This document shows positions 7,094-61,758 of a stretch of 64,000 bases of DNA, piece after piece. Origin of the DNA: Ignavibacteria bacterium. Its GTDB lineage: Bacteria > Bacteroidota > Ignavibacteria > Kapaibacteriales > UBA2268. Every line of letters begins with the position of its first letter. The first letter of the stretch is position 1. A program made the translations under genes and the position numbers. A model generated the notes under the pieces. That model was not told where the DNA came from and searched no databases. It saw only the letters and a program-made list of their open reading frames with translations. The stretch lies in assembly GCA_026417135.1 (NCBI GenBank), contig JAOADV010000004.1:814-64813 (forward strand). Direction: 5' to 3'.

Positions 7094-9166
7094 TTAATCG
7101 TAAGCTCTACCGCTGAAAATCGAGGACTGTTGTCCATCTACATAAATTAAAGCCTGTTCGGCTGCTTCGATAAGTGGCTGGACGGATATTTCACTACCGA
7201 CTGCACCTTTCATCCAGGCTTGCGGAGTTAAATTGCCTTGCGTAAAAATGCGAATTAATTCATTGGCGAAATCCTTACCTTCTAAATGCTTTTCGAGTTG
7301 AAATTCGATAACGTGCCCAAGAGGATAAGCTGGCAAATACAATGGATAATCTATCATATGTGAGTAGATTGCAAGTATAGGAACATCTTTGTGGTTGAAA
7401 ACTGGAGCAAAATAGTTGTTCCAAACTTCTTTCGCAATTCGAATTACTTCGTTCTTTAAGTCTTCGGGTGTGGCGTCGGGATTGTTGTAGAGCCATCTCC
7501 AAACGTACATATCGACAAGAGCAACGCCCATTATTTCGTAAGTAGCCCAGAAGTTGTCGAGAACAGTTAAATATTTGGCTTCTGGGACTGGGTCTTTTAT
7601 TCCTAACAAATCCAAGTCTCGTTTTTGGAAAATAAAAGCTAAGGCTTCGGTAAATGCTGTGTTTGGTACGCCAGTAAGCATATAGTAGTCAACCTTATTT
7701 AAAGTAAGGACTTGTTCGACGTTATGCCCGAATTCGTGTATTGCTATGTTGAATCCTTTATAATCTAAGCCTTCTTTCCCAATCCGCGTTCGGAGATGTG
7801 CTTTTTCGCTTCGCATTTGTGCGCCCCAAGCATGACCTGCCCCCCGAGAAGCTTCGACTTCAACCTTTGAAGAAATGTAGTTCGCAATATCTTGGGCAAA
7901 TCCCAATTTAATTAATAGATTTGGTAAATCTTTTGTAAACGCTTCGCTTGTTGGATAAAGATTTCGCGTGATTCCAGTTAAAAATTCTTCGCTTAATCTG
8001 CTTCGTGCTTTAAAACCATCGTACCATATATCGAATGGTTCGAGTTTTCGACCTAATCTCTTTTGGATTAATCCAGCAACTTTTTTGACAGTGGGAGAAG
8101 AAAGTAAATCTATAAATAACTTTTCGATTTCTTTTTCGGAAATTTCAAACTCTAAATCGAACTTACGACTAATATAAGTGGGGTAGTTAGGGTAGAACTT
8201 ATCTATTTCTTTCCGCACTCGAAAGTTATTTAAAAGATGAAAGTAGCGCGTATTTGGTTCAGTCTTGAAAGGAATTTCTTTCCCATCACTAAAAAGTTTG
8301 TTTTTAAAAGGGTTCCATTGGAAATTAGGGTTATTTATAACTTGCTCGGGAATTGTTTGATTAATGATGTGTTTCATTACTTCGTAAATCATATTTTGTT
8401 TGAAAAGGGCATCATCTTTTCCATACAATGATTTTATTTCGTCTCGCAAGTTCCAATGTGAAATTAATTTCTTGTCTTTGGGGAAGTATGTTTTTCCTTC
8501 ATCGTCAACTAAATTGCCAACGTAAATGTTGTATTGGGAAATATAAGAGTCGGCTTTTGTAGAAGTTTCGGAGATTTTTTGTAAATACTCGCTCGGGACA
8601 CGAGAATCGAACAAATCCCCCATTCTCGCATACGCCCACTCTTTTCTATTCCACTTTTCGCCGAGTTCATTTTTCTCTTTCAAAGTATAATTAGGAAAAT
8701 TTAAAATCACGTAGAAAGCAATTTTATTTTTAAAAAGGTCATTGGTTAGATTTGCCGATGGGTCGTATCCAGCAAACATTAGGTCTATTGGGAGTATTTC
8801 ACCTAAATCTAAGTGCAACTGCCGATTTAATTCTAATGAAATTTTGTTGAAATGTCCACTTAGAACTTCAAAGTACTTGGAAAGTCGGTCAAATACTGTA
8901 TCCAATCGTTCCCCTTTTGGGACAAAGTTGTTGGTGCAGAAATCGATGAAGTCCTTTTTTGAACCATCTTCTTCGAGCCAAAAATTTGCAACTTGGCGAA
9001 CACCACGCTCGATTCTTTCGCGTTCCCCTTCACCAAATTTTTCAATCATTGTTTTGACGGTCTTTTTGATTGTTGTCTGGTCGATAAACATATTTAACCC
9101 TTTTTCTTTGTTGGTCGAGCAAAATGTGAAAAAGAAAAGAACCAAGATAAAACTAAACACTTTCAT
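7094..9166 (-). CDS. putative zinc metallopeptidase lipoprotein (HEXXH gluzincin-like)
   Basis: 690 aa with a signal peptide and lipobox (FFTFCST). An HEFGH zinc-binding motif is followed downstream by Glu-containing segments. The exact MEROPS family is not assignable by eye. Confidence 0.55.
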   Translation of the reverse strand: MKVFSFILVLFFFTFCSTNKEKGLNMFIDQTTIKKTVKTMIEKFGEGERERIERGVRQVANFWLEEDGSKKDFIDFCTNNFVPKGERLDTVFDRLSKYFEVLSGHFNKISLELNRQLHLDLGEILPIDLMFAGYDPSANLTNDLFKNKIAFYVILNFPNYTLKEKNELGEKWNRKEWAYARMGDLFDSRVPSEYLQKISETSTKADSYISQYNIYVGNLVDDEGKTYFPKDKKLISHWNLRDEIKSLYGKDDALFKQNMIYEVMKHIINQTIPEQVINNPNFQWNPFKNKLFSDGKEIPFKTEPNTRYFHLLNNFRVRKEIDKFYPNYPTYISRKFDLEFEISEKEIEKLFIDLLSSPTVKKVAGLIQKRLGRKLEPFDIWYDGFKARSRLSEEFLTGITRNLYPTSEAFTKDLPNLLIKLGFAQDIANYISSKVEVEASRGAGHAWGAQMRSEKAHLRTRIGKEGLDYKGFNIAIHEFGHNVEQVLTLNKVDYYMLTGVPNTAFTEALAFIFQKRDLDLLGIKDPVPEAKYLTVLDNFWATYEIMGVALVDMYVWRWLYNNPDATPEDLKNEVIRIAKEVWNNYFAPVFNHKDVPILAIYSHMIDYPLYLPAYPLGHVIEFQLEKHLEGKDFANELIRIFTQGNLTPQAWMKGAVGSEISVQPLIEAAEQALIYVDGQQSSIFSGRAYD

Positions 9167-9521: not shown

Positions 9522-12500
9522 TTACTTTAACCAAATGAACTTTACGGAAGTGAAACTGGTTTGGCTTTCGGCTGTAACGAAATATATGCCTTCGGGAATT
9601 TGTTCAAATGGTAAATCAATTTTGTATTCTCTTGCTTCTTTTATATCTATCGAAAATTCAGCGAATTGAATTCCGTAAACATTATAAATTCTAAACTTGT
9701 GGTTGCCTAACTCGTACGGATAGAACTTAAGATAAACTTTTTGCTCGTTTGCGTTTATAATCACTGAATAGAATGGGTTTAAGCCCGGCTCGAACAATCT
9801 TAATCCTCCGCTGCTACAAACATTAAGCAAAGTAAATTTGCCCTTTGTTTCTTTAAAGTTTACCAAACCCTTAGCTGTTTTTGTGTTTTCGATGATAATA
9901 TCTGTTGTAGTATTGTTACCCAACTTGGCTCGAAACTTTAATTTTGCAATTGCCGAATCGCTTGCTATTGGTTTAATTGGCAAACCAGTAAGCAAGATTT
10001 TTGTTTCGCCATCTTTAACTATTCCTTTAGGAGTATCGCCAATTGGTTCCATCAAAGTGTAGTTAAATCGAATTTCTGTCGATATAGATTGATGAAAGTC
10101 TGTTACATTGTTCGGCATTTTTAAATATAAAGGAAGAATAAATTCTTCGCCAGTATTTGCAGAAACTTCGGCGACTACGATTTCAGCAGAGGAGGGTAAA
10201 ATAGTGAACTTTCCGTCAACTTCAGTAAAATATACGAAGCCATCAATCGAGCCAGAGGAATTGATATCCAATGTGGTCGAAAGAGTTGCGCTATTTAACA
10301 CTTCGAAACTAATTACAATGAGTGTTCTTGTAGTTGGAGAAAAGGGAATATTATCTAAAAGTAATGAATTCGTTCCTAATGTAACAATTACATTAGGGTT
10401 GGTTCCGACAAATTTTAAAATATTTTGGTCGTAATTAATCCTTGTTCGTACCCTTGTGGTTCCCGACTGTTCAAGGTTTACTGGATTTCGAACTAAGATG
10501 GGAATATTGATTATCTCGCCAACAAGCCCTTTGTGTTCGTCGATAAAAAGTTCTGCACGCGAGGCAATAGGATTGCTTGTAAATAAAATAGAGTCGAGGA
10601 AATTGCAAGGTTCACCAGTAAGTTTGAGAAAAGCATTCAACCCCCCAGATTTTTCGGGCAAATACCGTATGTCGATTTTCAGAGTACCGCCAGCCGATAG
10701 ATTCCAAGGTAATGCTGGTCCAAGTATTGTCAACTGCTTGTCCGAGAAGTTCGCAGAAGTAATTGTCAAAGCTCTATTGCTTGTGTTTCTGAGAATAATA
10801 CTCGTATCTTTTGTATTACCTACTATTCCAAAAATTGTTATGGGTGCTTTGTCTATTTTTGGACTGTGAACATTTCCAGTTAAAGAGACCCTCTTTTGTT
10901 CATTGCAATAATCGTCGCTTATGCTAAGATTAGATGTAAAGGTACCTTCGGTAGGCGATTGCAAGGCTATTTCTAATGTTTCAGATGCATTTGGTGCTAA
11001 TGTAATAGAAGAAGAAGGAACAGTAAAAGGAGACGGTAGGCTGAGATTTAGTGTGATTTGAACATTTCCAGTGTTTTGAATCGTTAAATTCATTTTCTTA
11101 ACTTCATTAGGACAGATAACCCCAAAATCAAGGTTCGATAAGTTCGATGAGAATGTTCTGTCGGCAACAAAGCAAGTTAAAGGAATTGATAAAGTAGGAT
11201 GATTTTTTGCATTACTTGTGATTACTAAATTTGCGGAAATATTGCCCTTTGTCGAAGCATTCACTCGGAGATTTAGTACGTATTGGGATTCTGGTGCTAT
11301 CTTCACCGTCCCTGGATTAGAAGGTATAAACGAAAAGTCCGTTGCATTTGGTCCGGTGATTTGGAAATTTGTTATTTCGAGTTCCAAGGCTCCAGTATTT
11401 TTAATTACAATTGCTGTGTCGTAAAATCTTTTTTTGCAATCCAAATTTGGGAAAGAAATGGAGTTGTAGGTGCTAATTTCTGGAAATCCGCTGCCACTTC
11501 CGAATATTTTAGATTCGAAACGCCCCTTTTGAGTATCGAAATACAAAGTGCTTTGCCGAAAAGATGGGTCGCTTGGTGTAAAAGCAACATTCATTTCCAA
11601 ACAAGAGAAGGGAGCAAGATATAAGTTAGTAGTTCCACCGAGCAAGCGGAAATCGCCTTGGTCCCCTCCGCTTATTCGGACGGAATAAATGGTTAATGGT
11701 TCATACCAATTGTTACAGAATAGTATTTTTTGCTGTAAAGTTTTTGTCTGCCCGACAACTCCAGAGCCACAATCTACATCTAATGGATAGACCCAACCAG
11801 AATTTATTACAAACTCGTTACCATCGCAAGCAGAGGTTGTCAAGTTGAACTTGTCAGTATGATAAAGCGAATCATTATGTGGAGTGAATTTTATCTTAAT
11901 CGTCCTCGAAGAATCCTTTTCCAATTTAAAAGGTGGAGGGGTGCCACCCCAGTCGGTAACTTCAACATTGTTGAATTGTGAAGTAACTCCGGGAGAATTT
12001 ACATTTACAAAATTGTTTTTTGCAACAATATTAATTGTTTTTTCGAATGGTTGGTTGTAGGGGCGATTTAGCACGTAAATTGTTTTATCGTTGGAATGGA
12101 TTGCAGGTAGAAATCGCGATGGGACCTTGTACGAGAAGCTATCGGCAAGATTAGAAGGTTTGTACACAATATTTCCAAGCCCACCAGAGCAGTCCGAAAT
12201 AAAACGAAGTCGGCAAGGTGCTGGGGGACCCAAAGTTCCTATTGTGGTTAAAATGGATGAATAGAGATTATTAAGTTCTTCTTCGCTTGGTACAGACTTA
12301 AAAGCTTCGCCGTGTGGAGTTCCCCCGCAAATGGCGCTTAATTCGGGAGGAACTGGGAAGCCCAGAGTAATTGCGTATATTGTAACATTATATTTCCTTG
12401 CCGAATCCAAAATCTGACTAACCCAGACACTGGTACGACTTGGTGGGGGATTTTGACGACCATTGTGTTCTCCATCTGTTAAGAAGATTACAACTGGCTT

Positions 12501-13082
12501 GTATTTGGCTCTTCGGGCGACAAGGACCGCTCCTTCGTTACCATAAACGTCGTAGAGGAGGCCAGCATTATAATCTGTTCCAGCACGAGGAGCAAGTAGG
12601 AAAGTATCTAAACCTTTATTCAACCACCATTTGCTATTTGTGAAATTTCGCACAAGAACATTTTCGTAGTCGAAAAGAGTTATAGCTGCTTCCCATCGAT
12701 TACTATCTGCTGGTAATGATTTGATTGCATTGCGGGCAGCTTGTCGAACAACGTCCATCTTTGTCTTTCCGGGAATGGTACTTGGCTCCGCCATTGAATA
12801 TGAAATATCGATAGTCAAAATCAACGAGAATTTTGTTTGACCGATAGGTGGGCAACCTACACCTTGTATTGCACGCGTGATTGTATTTTCGAGAACTTGG
12901 AAATCGCTCGATGTGAATGTTCTAACTTCTTTGCCTTCGTTATCGAAGACCTTGAACTCAACCATTATAGTTGGGTAATTCTCCGGAAAAATTTCGAATA
13001 CTTCTAATTTTTGAGATTTAGCACAGAAAACGAGAAGAATGAAAAATAAAGTGAAGACAACCGGGAAAATTCTTTTATTCAT
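9522..13082 (-). CDS. large secreted vWA-domain protein with a type IX secretion system C-terminal sorting domain
   Basis: 1186 aa with a signal peptide. The vWA domain has an intact MIDAS motif (DISYSM ... VIFLTDGEHNG). A long run of beta-rich, Ig-like repeats follows. The C-terminal ~80 aa (…PEGIYFVTAESQTSFTSVKFIWLK) matches the Por_Secre_tail / T9SS CTD pattern. Confidence 0.7.
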   Translation of the reverse strand: MNKRIFPVVFTLFFILLVFCAKSQKLEVFEIFPENYPTIMVEFKVFDNEGKEVRTFTSSDFQVLENTITRAIQGVGCPPIGQTKFSLILTIDISYSMAEPSTIPGKTKMDVVRQAARNAIKSLPADSNRWEAAITLFDYENVLVRNFTNSKWWLNKGLDTFLLAPRAGTDYNAGLLYDVYGNEGAVLVARRAKYKPVVIFLTDGEHNGRQNPPPSRTSVWVSQILDSARKYNVTIYAITLGFPVPPELSAICGGTPHGEAFKSVPSEEELNNLYSSILTTIGTLGPPAPCRLRFISDCSGGLGNIVYKPSNLADSFSYKVPSRFLPAIHSNDKTIYVLNRPYNQPFEKTINIVAKNNFVNVNSPGVTSQFNNVEVTDWGGTPPPFKLEKDSSRTIKIKFTPHNDSLYHTDKFNLTTSACDGNEFVINSGWVYPLDVDCGSGVVGQTKTLQQKILFCNNWYEPLTIYSVRISGGDQGDFRLLGGTTNLYLAPFSCLEMNVAFTPSDPSFRQSTLYFDTQKGRFESKIFGSGSGFPEISTYNSISFPNLDCKKRFYDTAIVIKNTGALELEITNFQITGPNATDFSFIPSNPGTVKIAPESQYVLNLRVNASTKGNISANLVITSNAKNHPTLSIPLTCFVADRTFSSNLSNLDFGVICPNEVKKMNLTIQNTGNVQITLNLSLPSPFTVPSSSITLAPNASETLEIALQSPTEGTFTSNLSISDDYCNEQKRVSLTGNVHSPKIDKAPITIFGIVGNTKDTSIILRNTSNRALTITSANFSDKQLTILGPALPWNLSAGGTLKIDIRYLPEKSGGLNAFLKLTGEPCNFLDSILFTSNPIASRAELFIDEHKGLVGEIINIPILVRNPVNLEQSGTTRVRTRINYDQNILKFVGTNPNVIVTLGTNSLLLDNIPFSPTTRTLIVISFEVLNSATLSTTLDINSSGSIDGFVYFTEVDGKFTILPSSAEIVVAEVSANTGEEFILPLYLKMPNNVTDFHQSISTEIRFNYTLMEPIGDTPKGIVKDGETKILLTGLPIKPIASDSAIAKLKFRAKLGNNTTTDIIIENTKTAKGLVNFKETKGKFTLLNVCSSGGLRLFEPGLNPFYSVIINANEQKVYLKFYPYELGNHKFRIYNVYGIQFAEFSIDIKEAREYKIDLPFEQIPEGIYFVTAESQTSFTSVKFIWLK

Positions 13083-13112: not shown

Positions 13113-15140
13113 TCATTCAATTGGTGTTACAATTTCGATATTAACCGTTCTACAATAAAAGCGACCTTCGGGTAAGTAATTGTCATACAAAAGTTTAGAT
13201 TCTCCAAGACCAACTGCAAACTTCGGGTCGACACCGAGAACTCTTGCAGTCGAAAGAGCACGTCGCTGCGAAAGTACTAAGTTCGTCGATTCATCGCCTA
13301 TTCTATCTGTATATCCTTCGATTTTAACAGTGGAGCTGGGCCTAATTCTTTTTTTAGCGATACTTGCTATTTTAAGATTTTCACCAGTTACTTCATATTG
13401 ACCGAAATCGAAAAGGATAAGGCTAAACCGGTCTATCATCTTGTCGGCAACTTGCTCGACAATTTTTTTCTCGATTGTTAATATTTCGACTGGCAGTTCT
13501 AAAGTTTGAGATTCCCATTTCTTTTGGTCTTTGTCGATGACAATTAGCTTGTATTTTAATGGTTCGTCCAGTTTAGGGACAGAATGTTGTTCCCAAGCGA
13601 TATCCCATTCAATAGCCTTTGGAATGTCCCCTTTCCCCTCGAAGACTTTTAATACGCCATTTGTTTGGGATGTTACCAGTTGCCATCTGTCAATACCTAT
13701 TGGGGTTTTTACTACTGGCTTAAAACGGAATTTAGGCGGATTGACTTCTCGCAGAGTATCTTCGACGACGAGTGGTTCGAATATTTGGGGAATGTTAGCA
13801 TAAATTTCGACGCGGCGATTTTCGACAATTCCGTCGGGGTCGTTAGGATTCGAAGGTTTGTCGGGTAAGTTTTTTGCCGATACTTTTATTCTTTCGGGCG
13901 GAATTTTCCAAACTTCGGTTAGGTAATTGCGAACCGATTCGGCTCGCATTTGAGATAATCGTATATTCCCTTTTTCAAGTCCTTCGTCCGAATTGTATCC
14001 GATAATTGTCAGCTCCGCTTGGGGATATTGCGAAACTCTTTTACCTATCACATTTAGAATTTCGTAGTAAATATCCAGTGTCGGCAGCCCATAGAGTTTT
14101 TTGATTGTAAAATCTTTGGTTTCTTCTGGTTTTAATCGCTTGTATCTTCTTGGAATTTCCGAAGAATTTTCATCGAAGAATATGTATCCTAAAAGTGGGT
14201 ACATTTTTGTCGAAAGGAACTCTTCGACCTTTAATAAAATTACCGAACGTTCATTCCCTCGTTCGTCGAGGCTAACTGCCGTTATAGATGCTTCCAGTGT
14301 TGGTTCCGTCGGGGGTGTTGGCAAATCGGGAAGTGGCGGAGTAATTGGGGGAGGAGGCGGTGGGGCTATTTTTTTCTCCTTCCTTGGTGCATAAACGAAA
14401 CTGATTCCAGCAGCGAAGGAATATGGTTTCCATTCGTCTTGGTCGATATTGTTGAATCCGATTTTACATTGTAGTCCGGGAACAAAAAATAAAGTAGAAT
14501 TGGCATTAATTGGCAAAAAATAGCGCAATCCAAATTTTAATCCATACAAGAGCTTGTTTACATTTGGAATTTCACCCGATGTTTGGTTACGTACCCTTGT
14601 TTTTTCAACAGCAAATACACCATACGAAGGACTTACTATTTCTTCTTTTTGTTCAAAAGTATGTTTAAGTAAGAAATTTACTGATGGACCGATAGATAAC
14701 ACGAATTGTGGAGTTAGTCGGTAAGAAAAAGACAAGTCGCCGAATATGGAATTTAAATTTGACTTTACCGAATGTTCGAATTCTCCCCAAACCCCTTCTT
14801 GGGCTTGAGTAGAAAAATATTCTTTTTCACGTTTTAAAAGAGTTGCACCAAGATTTTCGTAACCGATTTGAAATAATAGTCCAAAACTTTCGGAGAACGG
14901 AAAAATTATCTTAGACCCAAAATTATAGTTTAACCCAAAACCGGTTTCGAAGCGAGGGCAACAGCTTGGAATATTTGGGAAATTAACACCTTTGAAATTT
15001 GCAGAATGAAAATTGGCTCCGCCAGAGAAAGTAAAACCAATTCCAAACCTATTTGATAATGGGGAATCAATATAATTTTGACTAAAAACTTGGTAGTAAA
15101 AGACGAAGACCGAAAGGAACAACTGTAATCCTTTTTTCAT
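13113..15140 (-). CDS. OmpA-family outer membrane protein: N-terminal beta-barrel, polyproline linker, two OmpA-like C-terminal domains
   Basis: 675 aa with a signal peptide. The N-terminal ~250 aa are aromatic/Gly-rich with beta-barrel character. A PPPPPPITPPLPDLPTPPTEP linker follows. Two OmpA_C-like segments are present (…NRRVEIYAN and GYTDRIGDESTNLVLSQRRALS…). Confidence 0.7.
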   Translation of the reverse strand: MKKGLQLFLSVFVFYYQVFSQNYIDSPLSNRFGIGFTFSGGANFHSANFKGVNFPNIPSCCPRFETGFGLNYNFGSKIIFPFSESFGLLFQIGYENLGATLLKREKEYFSTQAQEGVWGEFEHSVKSNLNSIFGDLSFSYRLTPQFVLSIGPSVNFLLKHTFEQKEEIVSPSYGVFAVEKTRVRNQTSGEIPNVNKLLYGLKFGLRYFLPINANSTLFFVPGLQCKIGFNNIDQDEWKPYSFAAGISFVYAPRKEKKIAPPPPPPITPPLPDLPTPPTEPTLEASITAVSLDERGNERSVILLKVEEFLSTKMYPLLGYIFFDENSSEIPRRYKRLKPEETKDFTIKKLYGLPTLDIYYEILNVIGKRVSQYPQAELTIIGYNSDEGLEKGNIRLSQMRAESVRNYLTEVWKIPPERIKVSAKNLPDKPSNPNDPDGIVENRRVEIYANIPQIFEPLVVEDTLREVNPPKFRFKPVVKTPIGIDRWQLVTSQTNGVLKVFEGKGDIPKAIEWDIAWEQHSVPKLDEPLKYKLIVIDKDQKKWESQTLELPVEILTIEKKIVEQVADKMIDRFSLILFDFGQYEVTGENLKIASIAKKRIRPSSTVKIEGYTDRIGDESTNLVLSQRRALSTARVLGVDPKFAVGLGESKLLYDNYLPEGRFYCRTVNIEIVTPIE

Positions 15141-34995: not shown

Positions 34996-35832
34996 ATGGA
35001 ATTGATTTATGCACTCATTATCGGAATTATTCAAGGACTGACCGAATTTCTTCCAATTAGCAGTACAGCCCATATGACATTACTTGCGAAACTACTACAA
35101 AGCAAGTTGATAGAAGACCCACATCTGTGGACTGCTTCGATGGCTACAATCCAGCTTGGGACTTTGCTTTCACTCCTTATTTATTTTAGGAAGGAAGTAA
35201 TCGAAATTCCCTCAGATTTTTTAAAACATATTTTTGCACCTTCTTTTACCAATAGTTCAAGAGTTAATTCGAACTTTCGACTTGGTTTACTGATACTATT
35301 TGGCTCGGTACCTATTTTTTCGCTTGGGTACTTATTCAAAGATTTTATCGAAGGTGATTTTACGAAAAATAATTTCGTGATAGCAACAACTCTTATTCTT
35401 GTTGCTATTTTGTTGTTTATCGCAGAAAAAACGGGGAAGTTCAAAAAAAGCCTCGATGAAATAAATGTTTTCGATGCAATAATAATTGGTTTTGCTCAAT
35501 CGTTAGCTTTGATTCCGGGCGTTTCGCGCTCGGGGGCAACTATAACAGCTGGCTTGTTTTTAAATATCAAACGCGACGAAGCAGCCCGTTTTTCTTTTCT
35601 ATTATGTATTCCAGCAATTTTTGTAAGCGGGGTTTACGAATTCTATACAAATTTTAAATATTTTTCAAGCGAGGACATAGGTTTCATTCTTGTAGCTTCG
35701 ATAGTTTCCTTTTTTTCTGGTTACTTGGCGATAGCTTTTCTTTTGAACTTCCTTAAAACAAAATCGACATTACCTTTTATCGTTTATAGAATTGTCTTAG
35801 GTTCTATTATATTTGCGTTAGCTTTATGTTGA
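34996..35832 (+). CDS. uppP: undecaprenyl-diphosphatase (BacA/UppP)
   Basis: MELIYALIIGIIQGLTEFLPISSTAHM is the canonical UppP N-terminus, and PGVSRSGATITAGL is the second conserved motif. The start was chosen at the internal ATG (34996), not the ORF-track start at 34972. Confidence 0.9.
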   Translation: MELIYALIIGIIQGLTEFLPISSTAHMTLLAKLLQSKLIEDPHLWTASMATIQLGTLLSLLIYFRKEVIEIPSDFLKHIFAPSFTNSSRVNSNFRLGLLILFGSVPIFSLGYLFKDFIEGDFTKNNFVIATTLILVAILLFIAEKTGKFKKSLDEINVFDAIIIGFAQSLALIPGVSRSGATITAGLFLNIKRDEAARFSFLLCIPAIFVSGVYEFYTNFKYFSSEDIGFILVASIVSFFSGYLAIAFLLNFLKTKSTLPFIVYRIVLGSIIFALALC

Positions 35833-36545
35833 AATTTGCTTTCCTTATACTCTTAGTTTCTGCTTTTTTTTCCTGCGAAAAACAAACGCATAAGGAGGTT
35901 AACCAAACTGTTCGTCCCAGTATTGAAGGAAAAGTTGAAGAAAAATTCCCAATTAGCAGATTAAAATTCGACATACAATTAAATCCAGATTCTATTAAGA
36001 TAACTCATTATGCGACAATTTGGACAAGTTTTGGACCTTTCAAGTTAGCCCTTTATGGTAAGGACGCACCGCTGACTGTTAAAAATTTTGTCTCGCTTGC
36101 TCGTAGTGGATACTTCAATAATACTTTAATTCATAGAATTGCAAAAAATTTCTTGATACAAATGGGTGACGGGACAACAAAATTTAAATCCAAAAAGGAC
36201 GAGTGGGGTAAAGGAGGGAAAAGTATTTACGGTGGGTTTTTCCCCGATGAAATAAAAGCCAACTCCTACATTTACAATGTTGGCTATACTTATGGAACTG
36301 TTGCAATGGCAAATAGTGGACCAAATAAGAATCTGAGCCAATTTTTTATTTGTTTGGAAGAGGCTGAATTTCTTGAAAAGAAATACACAATATTCGGTAA
36401 AGTCGTCGAAGGAATAGAAGTTATCGAAACTATTGCAGGGCAAGAGATTATACCCTACAAATTCGATAGTCTGGATGGAACTCCCAAAAAACCAATAAAA
36501 ATATTTAAAGTAACGATAGCAAAGAACACTAATTCAAAACGTTAG
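35826..36545 (+). CDS. cyclophilin-type peptidyl-prolyl cis-trans isomerase, lipoprotein
   Basis: Lipobox SAFFSCEKQ. Cyclophilin core FGPFKLALYGKDAPLTVKNFVSLARSGYFNNTLIHRIAKNFLIQMGD…ANSGPNKNLSQFFI. Confidence 0.9.
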   Translation: MLKFAFLILLVSAFFSCEKQTHKEVNQTVRPSIEGKVEEKFPISRLKFDIQLNPDSIKITHYATIWTSFGPFKLALYGKDAPLTVKNFVSLARSGYFNNTLIHRIAKNFLIQMGDGTTKFKSKKDEWGKGGKSIYGGFFPDEIKANSYIYNVGYTYGTVAMANSGPNKNLSQFFICLEEAEFLEKKYTIFGKVVEGIEVIETIAGQEIIPYKFDSLDGTPKKPIKIFKVTIAKNTNSKR

Positions 36546-37398
36546 CCAAATTCAACTCGATAATCATTCCATCGAATAAATTACTTTTTCCAATTCTTTT
36601 TGTGTACTCTAAGTGTTCGGATGGCGTTTCAGAGGTATCGGACAATTTGAAATCGATTTCACCGACAGCCAAAACTTTATCCACTTCGATTGCTTTCCCT
36701 TGGAATTCACCACCAATAACGATACACGTTTTTTTAACTTTTGTTTGAAGTAATAGCTCGGCTTTATCGAAAAGGTCCACCATAAGTTTCAAGTCGTTAT
36801 TTTTAGTTTCCTCGATGACTTTCATTGCAAGGTCAAATTCTTGTCGCGATTTTAATTCTTCTACTTTTATTCCAATTTTGTGTATCTTCGAGTGTGGTTC
36901 TTCGAACTCTTTCAAAAGTGTTTGAAAAAAGTAGTTATCAGTTTGGTAAGAATAATACCATTGCCCAAATTTACATTTTGTGGGGTCTGTTGTTAGAGTA
37001 AATGGTCTTCTTTCAATTGTAGATTTAATTAATTCATCTATCCAGTTAATATGGTCTTGTTTACGTTCTTTTAAGGTAGATATCAATTGGAGATTTTCCT
37101 CTTCAAGCGACGGCAAGTTGAACTTTTTTCTTAAACTAATAACCGTGATTATTACACCTCTTAAAGTAAACATACCCAGAATTTGGGGGGGCTGACCTGG
37201 TAAAACGGTAAGTTCCGGCATTTTTATTATTCCGTTAACCAAGTGCACTGGGATACAATATTTGTTCTTTCCTAATTGAAATAGAACAAACTTTTCGTTG
37301 GTATTTTTAGATTTTTGCTTCTCTTTGGTGTGGGAAAAATCGTAGTTCATTTTTCGTTCCTTTACTAAAAAAGCAAAAATAATAGAAAAGTTTCGCAT
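36529..37398 (-). CDS. CheW-like coupling protein with an inserted CZB (chemoreceptor zinc-binding) domain
   Basis: The N-terminal CheW half KFVLFQLGKNKYCIPVHLV…TLRGVIITVISLRKKF aligns with E. coli CheW residues ~18-75. The C-terminal CheW half KTCIVIGGEFQGKAIEVDKVLAVGEIDFKL…DGMIIELNLANVLN is also present. Between them lies a ~125 aa insert carrying the full CZB signature: DHINW, 25 aa, CKFGQW, 21 aa, HSKIH. Confidence 0.65.
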   Translation of the reverse strand: MRNFSIIFAFLVKERKMNYDFSHTKEKQKSKNTNEKFVLFQLGKNKYCIPVHLVNGIIKMPELTVLPGQPPQILGMFTLRGVIITVISLRKKFNLPSLEEENLQLISTLKERKQDHINWIDELIKSTIERRPFTLTTDPTKCKFGQWYYSYQTDNYFFQTLLKEFEEPHSKIHKIGIKVEELKSRQEFDLAMKVIEETKNNDLKLMVDLFDKAELLLQTKVKKTCIVIGGEFQGKAIEVDKVLAVGEIDFKLSDTSETPSEHLEYTKRIGKSNLFDGMIIELNLANVLN

Positions 37399-37574: not shown

Positions 37575-38951
37575 TTGTTTTGTTTTATGAAAGTTAAATT
37601 TTCGATAATGCTTCTTTTTGCATTGATGAAAGTATTTCTTATTCTTCATTGCTGCGATGTTTTTTGTGGTAATTCTTTGATTCAAAACGACGATTTAATT
37701 ACCCCGAAGGATAAACCAATTGTTAGATTTATAAGGATTTATGGGGAACAAGGCGAACAATTTCCCCCAATAATAATTATCAGAGATGATAAGGGGACAA
37801 TTTCTCAAGATTTTTCCGGAGGTCAGCTGGTAGTCGAATTCGATGTTGCATCGCAAGTCCCTCCAAATCTCTTTGCTCGTTTCTTCCATTGTAGTTACGA
37901 TTGGAAAGAGAATGAAAATGTTTTTATAAATGAAGTATCGAATTACAGGACAAGCGATATTTTTTGGCAAGCTGGACCTTCGCATTCGAGATATTACAAT
38001 TTTCGTGGTACTTTAAAAATTCCAAATCAGCAAATAAAATTTAAATACGCCGGCAACTGGAAAGTAAAACTGTTCGATTATAACGACCCAGAAAAATCGC
38101 TTGCAGAAGCAAAATTTTTTGTTGTCTTACCTTTAGTCAATTGTGAATTACGGTTTTATTCTGACTTTTACACCCCCGAAAGAAATGTTACTGCTTCGGC
38201 ATTTCATATCGAGGCGTTAGTTTATTCTAAGTCTTCGTCGGGCATTGTCGATAACTACATTCACAGCGTGGGACTCTATAGAAATCATCGCTGGAATGAA
38301 CCATTTTTTATTTCTCAGTATCTTTCGACAAATTATGTTTACAAGTATAAATATGAGTTCGATACACAAATTTTTGGTTTCATCCGTAGTGGTAAAGTTT
38401 TCCGTATAGGGGGAATACCAGCTGAAAATGGATATAGGGTCATAGATTTAACCAATTTAGTTCTTTTCCCATCGTTAAATGCTCCGATTCGCCTTCCTCT
38501 TTCGGATATACGGCGTCGAGGAAGTTTTTTCGAGCCTCACGATGACGGAGCAATGACAACTACATTCATTTCTCCAAATTACGATGAATATGTATATCTT
38601 GAATTTGTTCTCGATACCGAAGGGTGGGAGGTTAAGGATGAAGTTTTTATTTCTGGTTCTTTCAATAATTGGACACCATCTGTCGAATGGAAGATGTTTT
38701 ACGATGACCGCGAAAGGGTTTATAAGCTTAGGCAATGGGTTCGCCGTGCTCGACATAATTATTTATATGCAACTGGGGTAATAACCGATGATGGTAAAAT
38801 TGAGAGTTTATCTTACGATGAATTGGAAGGTAATACCGTAACGAGTGGGCATACTTTTTTTGCTTTTGTTTACTACCGAAATCCAGCCTTTGGCGGTTAC
38901 GATGAGATTATTGGTGTAGCTAAAGATACATATTTTTCCGCAAGAAGGTAG
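37575..38951 (+). CDS. hypothetical exported protein, possibly T9SS-associated (beta-rich)
   Basis: 458 aa with a hydrophobic N-terminal signal peptide. No enzymatic motifs; aromatic-rich and beta-rich. The T9SS association is a low-confidence impression from general composition. Confidence 0.4.
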   Translation: MFCFMKVKFSIMLLFALMKVFLILHCCDVFCGNSLIQNDDLITPKDKPIVRFIRIYGEQGEQFPPIIIIRDDKGTISQDFSGGQLVVEFDVASQVPPNLFARFFHCSYDWKENENVFINEVSNYRTSDIFWQAGPSHSRYYNFRGTLKIPNQQIKFKYAGNWKVKLFDYNDPEKSLAEAKFFVVLPLVNCELRFYSDFYTPERNVTASAFHIEALVYSKSSSGIVDNYIHSVGLYRNHRWNEPFFISQYLSTNYVYKYKYEFDTQIFGFIRSGKVFRIGGIPAENGYRVIDLTNLVLFPSLNAPIRLPLSDIRRRGSFFEPHDDGAMTTTFISPNYDEYVYLEFVLDTEGWEVKDEVFISGSFNNWTPSVEWKMFYDDRERVYKLRQWVRRARHNYLYATGVITDDGKIESLSYDELEGNTVTSGHTFFAFVYYRNPAFGGYDEIIGVAKDTYFSARR

Positions 38952-43714: not shown

Positions 43715-46258
43715 ATGTTTGTAATGCACAAAAGTGAGTGGTTTCGCTTTATTCATAATCTTTTAAGCCAAGACTTTTTAATTAAAAATTATCCATTTTT
43801 TTGCGAAAGGATAAGTGAATTAAAAGAGGAAGAAAAGGAACCATTCAGAGCTTTCCAAGAATTTCCTCTCCCTTTATTTATTTTCGATACCAACGGGGAC
43901 ATTGAATTATCGAACACTGAATTTTTAATCCTAAGCCAAAAAATTGATTTTGGGCATTTTGAATTAGTTAAAATCCAGCATTTAGGTTTTAAATTCGATG
44001 ATATTAAGTCAGATTTGGAGACCGCTGAATTTTGTTATTCTTTAAAGCAAATTTATTTGTCCGAATTGGGTTCGGGTTTGGAAATTCACTTTCTTTTTTA
44101 CAAGATAGGCAAGGCGATAAACAAATTTTTAGGGGTGATTTTATTCGAAACTTCCGAGATTGAAAAAATTAAGCAACTCGTCAAAACTTTTTCAGATTTG
44201 GAAATAGTTTTTAATAATATTCCCTATTTTGTTTATTGTTTAGATACATCGTTTCGAGTTATTCGAGCGAACCAGTTTCTTTATTCTCAATTTTCACTGA
44301 GCAAGGAAAAAGTCGAAGGAAAACTTGTAGAAAGCGTTTTCCCATCGAAAATTGCAGAAAATTGTAGAAGCAAAGGATATGATGTTGCGAAAACATTGCG
44401 TCCATTGAATAGTTTGGAAGAGAAAATTAGGCTGGACACAGAAAAAGAATTTCATCTTGTAGTCGAACGAGTTCCACTTTTTTATCGAGAAGAATTTTCT
44501 GGGATTTTGGTTGTTGGTTATAATATTACAGAGAAGAAAAGAAATGAAATTGAATTAAGGAAATGGAAACAGCGGTTCGACCTTGTTACAACAGCGACGT
44601 TACAAGCTGTTTTCGAAAGGGATTGGAAAACAGGGCAAGTAATTTGGACCGAGAATGTTGAGGAGCTTTTCGGTTACTCGCCGGACGAATTAACAAGTAG
44701 AGAAAAATGGTTAGAAAAAATTTCTCCTTTTGACAAAGAAAAATATGTTGAGATCTTTCAAAAGCATTGCGATAGTTGTGCACCTTATTCTTTTGTTTAC
44801 CGTGTAAAGGACGCAAAAGGATTGGAAAGGTATGTTAGGGAAACGGGTTTCTTTTTGACAGAGGAAGGAGAAATTTCATCTGTTGTTGGAATAATTAGCG
44901 ACGTTACAAAGGAAAAATCGCTCGAACAAAAGGTTTACGATATCGATGCATTTTTGAATGTATTGTTGGATAATCTTCCTATTCCAGTTTTTTTCGAAAA
45001 TATCGAAGGGGAATTTTTGCGGTGCAATAAATACTTTAATACACAAATTTTAGAGATTGAAAAGAGAGCAGTTGTTTACAAGAAGATTACTGAATATCCC
45101 GAAATTTTTTCGGAAGAATATTTGAAAAAACATTTCGAAAAGAATCGGGCTATTTTAAATTCAGAAAAAGTTGACTGTTACGACGAAAGGGTTTATCTCT
45201 TGGACGGAACATATCGGGATTTCCTTATTTTCAAAGCTGGATATAGAGATTTCGATGGTAATCTCGTTGGGATATTGAATTTTTTCATTGATGTAACCGA
45301 AAGAAAGGAAATCGAGGAGCGACTACGAAATTTAAACTTAGAGTTGGAGCGTAAAGTTGACGAAAGAACAAAGGACCTTCAGTTTGCATTGGAAGAATAT
45401 AAATTCGAGGTAGAAGAGCACCGCCGTGTACAAGAAATACTTGAGCAAGCAAATTACGAGTTAAAAATTTTAAACGACACACTTGCGGAAGAAAGTAGAA
45501 AACTAATAGTTTTGAATGAAAAGCTCCAAAGGTCCGAAGCTGAACTTCGCGAAGCTAATTCGGCAAAAGATAAGTTTTTTACGATATTAGCGCACGACTT
45601 AAAGAATCCACTTCAGTCGATTCTAACAGATTCCGAGATACTCGAACGGTTTTTCGACACATTTTCTACAGAAAAAATCCGGGAGTATGTATCGCACATT
45701 TACAAAACATCGAATTTGCTAAAAAATTTGCTCGAAAATCTTTTAACTTGGGCAAAGACGCAAACTGGTAGAGTAAGTTTCCGCCCAGAATGGGTAAATA
45801 TTAATCTTCTTATAGTCGATGTGATTCGTTTTATTGAACCAGCAGCAAAAAGCAAATCCATCGAAATTATCTACGATAATAATGTCGATTTTATGGTGTT
45901 TTTAGATAGGAATCTGATTTCGACTGTTATCCGTAACCTTTTGTCTAATGCGATAAAATACTCTTATCGTGGTGGTAAAATCATTGTGAAAGTTGAGCAT
46001 TTCTACGAAGCAAATATGCCCGCATTAAAAGTTTCTATTATCGATTATGGGGTTGGAATAGAAAAAGAAACACAAGGTAAGCTTTTTAAAATCGAACATA
46101 ACATTGCAACGGTTGGAACGGAAAAGGAATATGGGACAGGTTTGGGGCTTATTCTGTGCTATGAATTGATTCGTTTGCACAATGGAAGAATTTGGGTCGA
46201 AAGCGAACCCGGAAAAGGAAGTACTTTTTCTTTCACGGTTCCAATTAATTTCGATTAA
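43715..46258 (+). CDS. multi-PAS sensor histidine kinase (no receiver domain)
   Basis: 847 aa with several PAS-like repeats and a coiled coil. The HisKA H-box is FFTILAHDLKNPLQS. The HATPase_c has N-box LLSNAIKYS and G-boxes DYGVGI and GTGLGLILC. Confidence 0.8.
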   Translation: MFVMHKSEWFRFIHNLLSQDFLIKNYPFFCERISELKEEEKEPFRAFQEFPLPLFIFDTNGDIELSNTEFLILSQKIDFGHFELVKIQHLGFKFDDIKSDLETAEFCYSLKQIYLSELGSGLEIHFLFYKIGKAINKFLGVILFETSEIEKIKQLVKTFSDLEIVFNNIPYFVYCLDTSFRVIRANQFLYSQFSLSKEKVEGKLVESVFPSKIAENCRSKGYDVAKTLRPLNSLEEKIRLDTEKEFHLVVERVPLFYREEFSGILVVGYNITEKKRNEIELRKWKQRFDLVTTATLQAVFERDWKTGQVIWTENVEELFGYSPDELTSREKWLEKISPFDKEKYVEIFQKHCDSCAPYSFVYRVKDAKGLERYVRETGFFLTEEGEISSVVGIISDVTKEKSLEQKVYDIDAFLNVLLDNLPIPVFFENIEGEFLRCNKYFNTQILEIEKRAVVYKKITEYPEIFSEEYLKKHFEKNRAILNSEKVDCYDERVYLLDGTYRDFLIFKAGYRDFDGNLVGILNFFIDVTERKEIEERLRNLNLELERKVDERTKDLQFALEEYKFEVEEHRRVQEILEQANYELKILNDTLAEESRKLIVLNEKLQRSEAELREANSAKDKFFTILAHDLKNPLQSILTDSEILERFFDTFSTEKIREYVSHIYKTSNLLKNLLENLLTWAKTQTGRVSFRPEWVNINLLIVDVIRFIEPAAKSKSIEIIYDNNVDFMVFLDRNLISTVIRNLLSNAIKYSYRGGKIIVKVEHFYEANMPALKVSIIDYGVGIEKETQGKLFKIEHNIATVGTEKEYGTGLGLILCYELIRLHNGRIWVESEPGKGSTFSFTVPINFD

Positions 46259-53583: not shown

Positions 53584-55467
53584 GTGGAAACAATAGTTGA
53601 ATTTATTAAAAAAGTTGAAATATTCAAAGACTTGGATGTCGAAGAACTTGCTGCTTTGCTTAAGCGTTTGGAAATAATTACTTACGATGAAAATGAATAT
53701 TTGTTTATGGAAAATTCCCCACGAAGGGGAATGTATATTGTTTGGGAAGGTAAAGTTGAATTATATAAAAATTCACCTTTTGGCGAACCGAAGAAGTTAA
53801 CATCTTTCAGCAAATACGATTTCCTTTCCGAAGGTGCTTTGCTCGACGATTATCCTCATTCAACTAATGCCATTGCGAAGGAACCAACCAAAATGGTGTT
53901 TTTGAGTAAAACTAATTTCGATAGTTTCATTAGAGAATCCCCCGAAGTTGCATCTAAAATCATTTCTCAGATTAGCAGAGTTATTTCCCGAAGAATGCGA
54001 CAAGCTGCGAATCAAGTTGTGAATGCGGCTGCGCAATATATTTCCGGAAGAGTAAGAATCGAAAAGGATTTACTTGGCGAAAGAGAAGTTCCATACGAAT
54101 TTTACTATGGAATTCAAACATTGCGTGCCTTGGAAAATTTTCCAATTACTGGAATACCAATTAGTCATTTTCCCGATTTAATTGTTGCCTTGGCGCAAGT
54201 TAAATATGCTTGTGCGTTAGCTAATTACCATTTAGGTTTTCTTCCAGAAAACATTAAGAACGCTATTGTTCAAGCTTGTCAAGAAATTATTGATGGACGT
54301 TTTCATATTTACTTCGTTGTGGATATGATTCAGGGCGGAGCTGGCACTTCGACAAATATGAATGCTAACGAAGTCATTGCAAATCGGGCGCTCGAAATTT
54401 TGGGTTACGAGCGAGGGCAATACCAGTACTGTCATCCAAACAATCACGTTAATTTATCGCAATCCACAAACGACGTTTATCCGACTGCATTAAAGATTGC
54501 ATTCATCAATTTAGGGCGTAAATTGGAGTCGGTTTTACAAGATTTAATCGATTCTTTTCACGCAAAAGCTTTGCAGTTTTCCAATATTATCAAGATTGGG
54601 CGGACTCAATTGCAAGACGCAGTGCCAATGACTCTTGGTCAGGAGTTCGAAGCATTTGCTGTTACTCTGGAGCAAGAGAAGGAGCGCATAAATCATAATA
54701 TGGAGCTTTTATTCGAGATAAATCTTGGGGGGACTGCTATTGGAACTGGTATCAACACACATCCTCGTTACAGAAATTTGGCACTCGAGTATTTGCGAGA
54801 AATTACTGGGCTTCCGTTGAAGCTTGCCGAAAATCTTGTCGAAGCAACACAAGATACTGGAGCATTTGTTTTATTCTCTTCGTCGATAAAGGCTCTTGCT
54901 ATTAAACTTTCCAAAATAGCAAACGATTTGCGGCTTTTGAGTTCTGGACCGAGAGCTGGATTGAACGAGATTAATTTACCAAAGATGCAACCCGGTTCGT
55001 CGATTATGCCCGGGAAAGTAAACCCCGTGATACCGGAAGTTGTAAATCAAGTTGCTTTTAAAGTTATTGGAAATGATTTAACTGTTACCCTTGCTGCAGA
55101 AGCTGGGCAATTACAATTAAATGTTTTCGAACCAGTAATAGCACAAAGTATTTTTGAATCTATCGAAATGTTGATAAGTGGAATTGTAACCTTTAACGAA
55201 AAATGTGTCAAAGGGATTACTGCAAATGAAAAACAATGTCGCGCTTATGTTGAAAAATCGCTTGGGATTGTTACTGCATTAAATGAATATCTTGGTTACG
55301 AGGTAACATCTCAGCTTGCAAAGGAATCTTTGGAAACTGGTAAAGGCATTTACGAATTGGTTTTAGAAAAAAAACTTCTCGAAAAGGATAAGTTGGACGA
55401 AATACTCAATCTTGAAAATATGATTCGCCCAAGTCTTAAATCGGATGTTTCGAAGCATAGGGAATAA
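53584..55467 (+). CDS. aspA: aspartate ammonia-lyase fused to an N-terminal cyclic-nucleotide-binding-like (CAP effector) domain
   Basis: GTG start. Residues 1-~150 have a CAP_ED-like beta-roll (VEIFKDLDVEELAALL…YLFMENSPRRGMYIVWEGKVELYK…FLSEGALLD). Residues ~160-627 are a class II fumarase/aspartase with GGAGTSTNMNANEVIANRALE (AspA-like) and the lyase signature GSSIMPGKVNPVIPE. Confidence 0.8.
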   Translation: METIVEFIKKVEIFKDLDVEELAALLKRLEIITYDENEYLFMENSPRRGMYIVWEGKVELYKNSPFGEPKKLTSFSKYDFLSEGALLDDYPHSTNAIAKEPTKMVFLSKTNFDSFIRESPEVASKIISQISRVISRRMRQAANQVVNAAAQYISGRVRIEKDLLGEREVPYEFYYGIQTLRALENFPITGIPISHFPDLIVALAQVKYACALANYHLGFLPENIKNAIVQACQEIIDGRFHIYFVVDMIQGGAGTSTNMNANEVIANRALEILGYERGQYQYCHPNNHVNLSQSTNDVYPTALKIAFINLGRKLESVLQDLIDSFHAKALQFSNIIKIGRTQLQDAVPMTLGQEFEAFAVTLEQEKERINHNMELLFEINLGGTAIGTGINTHPRYRNLALEYLREITGLPLKLAENLVEATQDTGAFVLFSSSIKALAIKLSKIANDLRLLSSGPRAGLNEINLPKMQPGSSIMPGKVNPVIPEVVNQVAFKVIGNDLTVTLAAEAGQLQLNVFEPVIAQSIFESIEMLISGIVTFNEKCVKGITANEKQCRAYVEKSLGIVTALNEYLGYEVTSQLAKESLETGKGIYELVLEKKLLEKDKLDEILNLENMIRPSLKSDVSKHRE

Positions 55468-59879: not shown

Positions 59880-60848
59880 TTACCTAAATTTAACAAATTG
59901 GAGCAGATTTCTCCAAATAATAGGATATTTACCACCAAGAGGACCAATTTTCTTCCAATCGCCAAGAACTTCTAACTCTCTTAAAATTCTTAAAATGTCT
60001 GTTATATCTCTTTCAACATTGGTAGTTTGACTTGCGAGTTTCTCTTTCAAAATTTTATCACATAGAACCTTCTTAAGGCTTTTAATATTTTCGAAATAGT
60101 TGTAGTCATCGTTAATTTCTTGAATAATTCCAACAATGTCGATATAGTTCCCTTGGATGAGAAATATTTTTCGGATAAATTCTTTAATCTTATCATCATC
60201 TTTTTCTGCAATTTCTAAGAACTCTTTGCCCAGTTCAGAAATTTCGTAGGAATTTAAATCGAAGAGCTTTAAATCTCGTAATAATAATTTGATATTGATT
60301 AAGTTAGATTTTTTTGCTGATTTCCATTTTCTAATTTTGGTAATTGTATGCCAAATTGTTTCATCAATATATTCTTTTTTGGGTGAATTTTGAAGAGCTT
60401 GGTAAATGTTTTTTAAAATAATATAGATTTCCTTATATTTTAAATCTCTGTAGTAAGCATAACCTCTTTGAATTTTTTCTGTAGTTATTAATAGCTCGGC
60501 TTGTGGTTTTGGTTCTCGATGTATTGAAACTCTGTTAGGTTCAACACAAATTATTCAAATGAAATTTGTCCATAACCATTTTTCCATTAATTCTAGTTCT
60601 TTTCTGGGTAAGGCTAAGTAAGATTTATCTGAATGCCTACAAAAAGCAATAGCTTGTCCCAATCCAGTCAAGTACTCTCTTCGATTAAGGTTGCTTGCCT
60701 TACATTCGATTTGAGCCAAAGTGCCATTTAAGTATTTAACTTGAATGTCGGGCATAGGGAAGTGATAAGCGAATCTTGTTACAATTTCGACATCGGACTT
60801 TTGTTTGAACCAATTAGAAACTAATTGCACAACCTCGTTATGTGTCAT
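59880..60848 (-). pseudogene. putative Type II restriction endonuclease (PD-(D/E)xK fold) interrupted by an in-frame TGA at 60555-60557
   Basis: A 97-aa ORF (60555-60848) contains the PD…ExK motif FPMPDIQVKYLNGTLAQIECKAS. The same frame continues past a single TGA for another 224 sense codons down to a TAA at 59880-59882. That downstream segment has no ATG, GTG or TTG near its 5' end, which is why it is absent from the ORF track. Sampled lines are ~25% GC against ~40% for the neighbours. Confidence 0.5.
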
Positions 60849-61758
60849 TTTGGTTTTTTAAAAATTAGAACATAGTCGTGGTTACAGATAAAATAATTAA
60901 ACCTTAGGGAGCGATATTTATTCAAGTTGATTTTGCCTTGCCGTGAACTTGCAAAACGAGTAATCTTGATGACTTTTGAATAATATTCAAAACCGACCTT
61001 TAAACCAACTTGCGTTGCGTAAAAATCTAATGGTATTGTTTTACCTCCTTTTTTAAAGTCCTCGCCAATTAAAACACAGAAAAATTTTCCTTTTTTAAGA
61101 ACTGTGAAAACTCCGATGAAAACTTTCTCTAACCCTTCGAGAAAACCATCAAGTGTTTTTTCGTTGGAAAGGTCTCCATCGACGAAGCCATATTCTTCAC
61201 CATATTTGACAAGTTCCCAATATGGTGGATGTGCAAAACAAAAATCAAAACTTTCTTTTTCTAAACCAAGTTCGAGCAGTTTTGTTGAGTTCCCAAGAAT
61301 AACTCGTTGTTGTTTAAGCCAAAAAAGTAATGAATCATCGTCAAATCCCAATGTTTCTTGTTGCAAATTTAATTTAGCAACTTCGAGTATTTTAGGGTTA
61401 ATTTCGACACCGACACCTCTTCGTTTCACTGTGCAGCAACTATCAAAGTGGTTCCCGAACCACAAAATGGGTCCAAAATCAAATCGCCTTCTTTCGAAAA
61501 GCGAAGCAGACATTGGCGTGGTATTTCAATTGGGGAATTGCCGTGGACGGTATATTTAGTCCAATTGTATGGGTCGCGTTCTGGGGTATCCCATATTGTA
61601 AAAAATTGAATGTCTAAGTTTTGTTCGTATTCTTTCCATTTTGTAGGGTCTAAGTCGTTTACTTCGCCATTTTCCGTTTTTTTCGATATTGCGTTTGGTT
61701 TTAAAAGTTTATATTTACTTAGGTTAAATAATTCGTCCATAACTTTTGCAAAATACAA
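60845..61758 (-). pseudogene. N6A/N4C-type DNA amino-methyltransferase disrupted by a -1 frameshift near 61426-61432
   Basis: The 110-aa ORF ends …HGNSPIEIPRQCLLRFSKEGDLILDPFCGSGTTLIVAAQ* (motifs X and I). The overlapping 222-aa ORF in the -1 frame continues …KRRGVGVEINPKILEVAKLNL (motifs II-III), then ILGNSTKLLELGLEKESFDFCFAHPPYW (motif IV), then …NHDYVLIFKK. Restoring one nucleotide after the CAG (Gln) codon joins them into AAQ-x-KRRGVGVEIN. Its stop overlaps the nuclease gene start as ATGA. Confidence 0.6.

Follow-up and report, generated by a model that had tools for sequence, protein, structure and literature searches.

The 64,000-nucleotide stretch analysed here (the window; contig JAOADV010000004.1 of an Ignavibacteria bacterium) carries on its minus strand a gene for a CheW chemotaxis coupling protein whose fold is complete but interrupted between its two halves by an entire CZB zinc-binding bundle. 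The maximal open reading frame (ORF), taken from the ORF list and its translation, occupies 36529..37398 and encodes 289 residues plus a stop; residue numbers below are those of this ORF unless otherwise stated. NCBI holds a 100% identical protein of 273 residues (P0001, 'MAG: chemotaxis protein CheW [Ignavibacteria bacterium]', where MAG denotes metagenome-assembled genome) that already carries both precomputed Pfam domains, CheW and CZB. The protein is an ordinary member of the catalogued CheW-CZB family, and on balance we favour, as the best explanation of its layout, that the CZB domain sits in the seam of the CheW fold and provides a zinc or redox input at the level of the adaptor.

The N-terminal half of the CheW domain (residues 35-97; 37108..37296, minus strand) comprises five beta-strands and a short helix, as delimited by Pfam, DSSP, alignment to E. 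coli CheW and conservation across the family, and holds the equivalents of E. coli CheW G57, R62, G63 and R72. The C-terminal half (residues 222-289; 36532..36735, minus strand) comprises five beta-strands and a terminal helix, opens with T224/C225, which align to the E. coli receptor-contact residues V87/V88, and contains D240, the equivalent of E. coli D103. Pfam CheW (PF01584) matches residues 37-102 (E 1.5e-17; 63.9 bits, cut-off 23.5) and takes in only positions 2-67 of the 138 in the profile, while NCBIfam returns weak echoes of both CheW and DgcZ. The C-terminal 85 residues, which contain the second CheW half, have no significant Pfam match when searched alone, so that separate proof of this half was needed from a splice test, from two-piece matches to a hidden Markov model (HMM) of the family, and from predicted structure with fold comparison.

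When residues 101-219 were removed in silico, the CheW score rose to 74.6 bits and coverage extended to profile positions 2-117, and the excised protein aligned collinearly with E. coli CheW (2ho9; 12-154 to 10-152). Ordinary CheW proteins of 170-200 residues, encoded close to family relatives in other genomes, give a split match to the family HMM: contiguous residues of theirs fall on profile 5-80 and then on 206-268, such that exactly the insert is skipped. An AlphaFold2 model of the single chain, built from a 45-sequence alignment, was confident (mean predicted local distance difference test score, pLDDT, 91.8; predicted template modelling score, pTM, 0.81) and runs from five strands and a short helix through five helices to a further five strands and short helix, with DSSP placing the strands of the N-terminal half at 21-72 in the numbering of P0001. 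Foldseek matches of this model to CheW structures take up ~260 query columns for targets of ~145 residues, with template modelling (TM) scores of 0.70-0.76 normalised by target, and what is recovered is the complete two-lobed, ten-strand beta-barrel fold of CheW. It is because these four lines of evidence (splice test, two-piece HMM matches, model and Foldseek) agree that we describe the protein as one complete CheW fold around a CZB domain. An earlier note on this DNA, made from the sequence alone, had proposed just such a split of CheW by an insert of ~125 residues, which these results bear out with an insert of ~124 residues; the peptides that it quoted are all present (LRKKF at residue 89, DHINW at 115, CKFGQW at 142, HSKIH at 169 and KTCIVIGG at 223), and its motif spacings are correct, with 25 residues between His116 and Cys142 and 21 between CKFGQW and HSKIH.

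The inserted block (residues 98-221, ~124 residues; 36736..37107, minus strand) is a five-helix CZB bundle that includes two long connector helices, and within it lies the Pfam CZB core (residues 116-179; 36862..37053, minus strand), with CKFGQW and the zinc-ligand codons, as delimited by Pfam, by profile alignment to DgcZ and by relatives. The match to Pfam CZB (PF13682) spans residues 116-179 and profile positions 1-63 of 64 (E 1.6e-12, 48.0 bits against a cut-off of 29.4), and the insert alone scores 50.2 bits. The predicted zinc ligands are encoded, all on the minus strand, at 37051-37053 (H116), 36973-36975 (C142), 36892-36894 (H169) and 36880-36882 (H173). In the model the helices of the insert occupy 82-112, 127-134, 140-147, 150-168 and 172-202 (273-residue numbering), and they form a bundle like that of the DgcZ CZB domain (Foldseek TM 0.77 to 3t9o). 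A single-sequence phmmer search of the insert against the PDB missed DgcZ, which was reached with a profile of 25 relatives; that profile aligns to the DgcZ CZB domain (3t9o; E 2.3e-6) such that the four ligands coincide, the H, CxFGxW and HxxxH of the family falling on aHyqW, CQFGRW and aHqhmH of DgcZ. The zinc ligands of DgcZ we take to be H22, C52, H79 and H83, and C52 is confirmed as a zinc ligand by Perkins and colleagues (PMC8262984). Across 181 family sequences the H, C, H, H ligands are all present in 178, and W119, G145 and W147 are invariant. The claim of the earlier note that the CZB module is complete was thus upheld, with the 3His/1Cys set in register with DgcZ, and the two checks by which it had proposed that the claim could be refuted came out in its favour: an HMM search of the insert detects CZB above cut-off, and structure prediction gives a confident helical bundle rather than a disordered segment.

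By alignment, the insert falls between Y82 and N83 of E. coli CheW and ends 3-5 residues ahead of the T86/V87/V88 strand, and the hairpin equivalent to that of R62 lies shortly ahead of its N-terminal junction. We also considered a simple C-terminal fusion, and rejected it, as the CZB domain lies between CheW strands 5 and 6 and does not follow an uninterrupted CheW domain. Judging from the pattern of five strands plus helix that DSSP assigns twice in the model, the insertion would lie at a sequence seam between tandem CheW halves. The receptor interface of E. coli CheW includes E38, R62, T86, V87, V88, G99, V105 and V108 (2026 review, PMC13098124). Interface residues are retained here as G75, R80, G81, D240, V242 and V245, the equivalents of E. 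coli G57, R62, G63, D103, V105 and V108, and in the 181-sequence family the equivalents of G57, R62, R72 and D103 are kept in 100%, 86%, 98% and 98% of members, respectively, with V105 and V108 hydrophobic throughout. With these hallmark receptor- and kinase-interface residues kept, the CheW part looks functional, as far as sequence conservation can indicate. The connections are similarly constrained across the same family: the distance from the CheW anchor arginine to the first ligand histidine is 26 in 157 of the 181 sequences (the main alternative, 22, being one helical turn shorter), that from this histidine to the cysteine is 26 in 179, and that from the cysteine to the third histidine is 27 in 168.

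This layout is widely shared. Profile searches yielded ~45 close members of the family, each 257-305 residues long and carrying both CheW and CZB; at E <= 1e-30 they also gave 1,201 cluster representatives (clustered at 50% identity), and among the top 150 of these, nearly all are 255-295 residues long with a single collinear match over the whole profile. At least 555 species-representative genomes have a relative, ranging from Kapaibacteria, Ignavibacteria, Melioribacteraceae, Acidobacteriota, Desulfobacterota, Myxococcota and Planctomycetota to Arcobacter, Halochromatium, Clostridia (Lacrimispora, Acetobacterium, Eubacteriaceae) and Paenibacillaceae. There are also multi-CheW proteins of 625-684 residues in which CZB lies inside one unit (P0049, P0051, P0064, P0072, P0121, P0137 and P0144), as in P0049, which has four CheW stretches and a CZB domain at residues 270-331.

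Nor is the combination of domains new. Perkins et al. (2021, mBio; PMC8262984), in their census of CZB proteins, explicitly list CheW-CZB as an architecture class, place it in CZB cluster III and report that it accounts for 1.4% of CZB proteins and reaches its greatest abundance in Clostridia, and Muok et al. (2023; PMC10653840) count it among previously identified CheW architectures or fusions. The earlier note had treated a CZB domain in the adaptor as possibly undescribed; this does not hold, given that the class is named in these two papers, that the NCBI entry shows both domains, and that ~1,200 clusters and at least 555 species genomes share the layout. In the literature searched, the term CheW-CZB was found only in these same two papers, both of which speak of a fusion and neither of an insertion, and the family-wide insertion of CZB into the CheW fold with conserved connectors may therefore be unreported. 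As Pfam gives only the first CheW half (profile 2-67), domain strings read 'CheW, CZB' and hide the interruption, which calls for caution in annotation, since it is invisible in Pfam-style strings across the family.

The functional reading builds on what is known of CZB domains elsewhere. In TlpD and DgcZ, CZB binds zinc very tightly through its 3His/1Cys core, which makes the homodimeric bundle rigid, and hypochlorous acid (HOCl) converts the cysteine to a sulfenate (Cys-SOH), with local unfolding of alpha2-alpha3, lowered zinc affinity or zinc release, and an allosteric change of output (PMC8262984); in crystal structures of TlpD, small changes at the ligand site travel along the helices (bioRxiv 10.64898/2026.01.16.699579). 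In CheWS, a domain fused to CheW has been demonstrated to act as a sensor, and the same has been suggested for CheW-CZB (PMC10653840). It is plausible that CheW is the level at which the array receives a zinc or redox signal. We hypothesize that the CheW part would occupy a CheW position in the chemoreceptor/CheA array and that the CZB part would bind Zn2+ through H116, C142, H169 and H173, with zinc occupancy, or oxidation of the zinc-bound cysteine, switching the bundle between rigid and locally unfolded states as in TlpD and DgcZ. At its two ends the bundle is predicted to join CheW directly, its first helix meeting strand 5, just past the hairpin equivalent to that of R62, and its last helix meeting strand 6, the receptor-contact strand equivalent to that of V87/V88; with helices and strands continuous in this way, a change in the bundle could reach the surfaces that bind receptor and kinase and so affect coupling to CheA. 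The array would in this way gain a cytoplasmic zinc or redox input for which a dedicated chemoreceptor is unnecessary.

A wider version of this idea, which we put forward tentatively and regard as possible rather than probable, is that throughout the family CZB is a zinc/redox actuator, wired by two helices of conserved length, that reshapes the receptor and kinase surfaces of the adaptor and so provides a receptor-independent input. Chemotaxis signals are usually thought to enter arrays via chemoreceptors, adaptor-borne sensors such as CheWS being a recent exception. If true, such an actuator would represent a receptor-independent sensory input in hundreds of species, and would be particularly useful where there are very few chemoreceptors (MCPs), as in Ignavibacteria; Ignavibacterium album, the type organism of the lineage, combines a complete set of flagellar and che genes with just one MCP (PMC3362086). 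A sensor mechanically built into the adaptor, rather than tethered to it, also makes for a testable proposal, namely that zinc or oxidant status tunes kinase coupling allosterically through CheW.

Several observations weigh against a zinc or redox input into the array through this protein. The equivalent of E38, the salt-bridge partner of R62 in E. coli, is glycine here and is glutamate in only 44% of relatives, and CZB domains act as homodimers (PMC8262984). Within the 64-kb window there is no cheA, mcp or flagellar gene, and within +/-10 kb of family members an MCP gene occurs in only six of 76 loci and another CheW gene in two; with family genes so rarely near che genes, genomic context gives no support for array membership. 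Finally, no experiment on any CheW-CZB member was found in the literature searched.

Such points leave room for other explanations. One is that CZB is a structural cross-linker, that is, a zinc-stabilized dimerization module that ties CheW units together, for instance within rings made of CheW alone or from one ring to the next, zinc being a permanent structural cofactor without a part in signalling. CZB homodimers have sub-femtomolar zinc affinity, such that zinc normally stays bound (PMC8262984), the 625-684-residue multi-CheW proteins with CZB in one unit suggest a scaffolding theme, and the gene lacks linkage to specific receptors. However, the reactive cysteine is kept in 99% of members with the full CxFGxW, where a purely structural site could tolerate histidine or aspartate, the site is regulatory in the CZB proteins tested so far (TlpD and DgcZ), and connectors kept so closely to one length are no less consistent with mechanical signalling than with scaffolding. 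We therefore consider a purely structural role unlikely. Slightly more doubtful still is that the protein works outside the flagellar array, either in another chemosensory-like pathway (surface motility, biofilm, development) or as a zinc- or redox-dependent decoy that titrates receptors or CheA. Every characterized CheW domain works with CheA and MCP partners, and here the interface residues are conserved and the fold is that of a canonical CheW, all of which argues against such a role; what speaks for it is the orphan state of the gene, in this window as in most genomes, and the presence of the family in phyla that have alternative Che-like pathways, for example Myxococcota, Planctomycetota and Acidobacteriota. 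PAS-HisKA kinases, the commonest neighbour cluster (16 of 76 loci), might also be read in its favour, but the family is generic and the signal both weak and unspecific.

That the whole arrangement is an artefact, whether through fortuitous motif similarity, chimeric assembly or pseudogene decay, is highly improbable, the only weak point being that the second CheW half lacks a significant Pfam match of its own. We rejected these three possibilities on the strength of the ~1,200 collinear clusters, the at least 555 species genomes, the invariant key residues, the model confidence (pLDDT 91.8) and the intact reading frame. A zinc or redox input through an inserted CZB domain thus remains the explanation that we prefer.

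The orphan state of the gene is typical of its family. A Pfam survey of the 50 gene-sized ORFs of the window detected no CheA, MCP, CheY, CheB or CheR gene, which agrees with the earlier note in its statement that no other che gene is present. That note had further suggested an orphan auxiliary CheW; orphan it is within the window, but its status is not unusual, the orphan state being the norm across 76 family loci rather than the mark of an unusual auxiliary gene. Neighbourhood clustering of these loci found no conserved partner gene, with generic PAS/HisKA kinases as the most frequent cluster, and the closest relatives (45-47% identity, Kapaibacteriales) are also orphans, in an unrelated neighbourhood. 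In the window itself, a multi-PAS HisKA/HATPase histidine kinase of 847 residues (43715-46258, plus strand) lies ~6 kb from the CheW-CZB gene; PAS-HisKA being a generic family, a tie between the two is probably coincidence. Immediately downstream, a convergent cyclophilin gene (35826-36545, plus strand) overlaps the 3' end of the CheW-CZB gene by 17 nucleotides (36529-36545), which leaves no space for a terminator between the two, and upstream lies a divergent gene for a protein resembling the plug of the type IX secretion system (37575-38951).

With regard to the extent of the gene, the earlier note had given 36529-37398, and the 289-residue ORF on the minus strand does stand, but its start is probably not the true one. 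The second methionine (M17) is likelier, with a probable coding sequence of 36529..37350 (minus strand) and a CheW-CZB product of 273 residues, as suggested by the NCBI call, by the homologues, all of which begin ~15-20 residues ahead of the first strand, equivalent to a start at M17, and by a Shine-Dalgarno-like AGGA. This last element (37358..37361, minus strand), read from the sequence, lies 8-11 nucleotides 5' of the M17 ATG and may serve as its ribosome-binding site. A DNA motif search also found TATTTTTG (37374..37381, minus strand), 24-31 nucleotides 5' of the same ATG, which matches the Bacteroidota-type -7 consensus TAnnTTTG and is weakly suggestive of a promoter. Promoter and terminator scans gave no sigma-70-type promoter 5' of the gene and no terminator above chance near it. 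Across the whole window, which has a GC content of 36%, TAnnTTTG is modestly enriched (112 observed versus 85 +/- 9 in shuffles, none of which reached 112), and this enrichment fits an origin in the FCB group, to which Ignavibacteria belong.

Three other regions of the window deserve mention. A 627-residue class-II fumarase/aspartase (53584-55467, plus strand; Lyase_1 and FumaraseC_C) has an N-terminal cyclic-nucleotide-binding domain at residues 33-118 (E 4.5e-16), an unusual fusion that suggests control of a tricarboxylic acid cycle or aspartate enzyme by cyclic nucleotide monophosphates. At 60555-61513 (minus strand), a 222-residue ORF aligns with no more than the initial half of the N6_N4 DNA methylase profile (positions 2-108 of 221) and is followed in the same direction by a 97-residue ORF without a match, and the two may represent a split or frameshifted methylase. 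Lastly, a 1,186-residue protein with VWA, Ig-like (ASH/HYDIN/DUF1573) and cohesin-like domains (9522-13082, minus strand) adjoins a 675-residue OmpA-family protein (13113-15140) and a 690-residue ORF without a Pfam match (7094-9166), and these genes may form a cell-surface cluster.

Among known systems, the protein differs in nothing of kind from the CheW-CZB class, with which it shares a 3His/1Cys core and the pairing of CheW-like and CZB domains within a single cytoplasmic chain of ~270 residues; the family found here includes Clostridia, this member comes from an Ignavibacteria MAG, and the insertion topology is shown here for both the protein and its family. Closest in concept is CheWS of Treponema denticola (Muok et al., 2023), likewise a CheW adaptor with its own sensor, through which a cytoplasmic signal enters at the adaptor, but the CheR-like, S-adenosylmethionine-binding sensor of CheWS is C-terminal and attached via a linker, whereas here a zinc-binding bundle lies inside CheW and is joined to it by two helices. 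CheV (CheW-REC) similarly combines a CheW domain with a regulatory domain in an auxiliary or alternative coupling protein; its REC domain, however, is C-terminal and phosphorylated by CheA, while the protein described here has no REC domain by Pfam and carries its extra domain internally. Functionally it may resemble these terminally fused adaptors, but it does not belong to their class. In TlpD (H. pylori) and DgcZ (E. coli; PDB 3T9O, 4H54), by contrast, the CZB domain is terminal and joined to its output at one end, whereas in CheW-CZB the bundle is anchored in the output domain at either end, and that output is a scaffold protein rather than a receptor or an enzyme.

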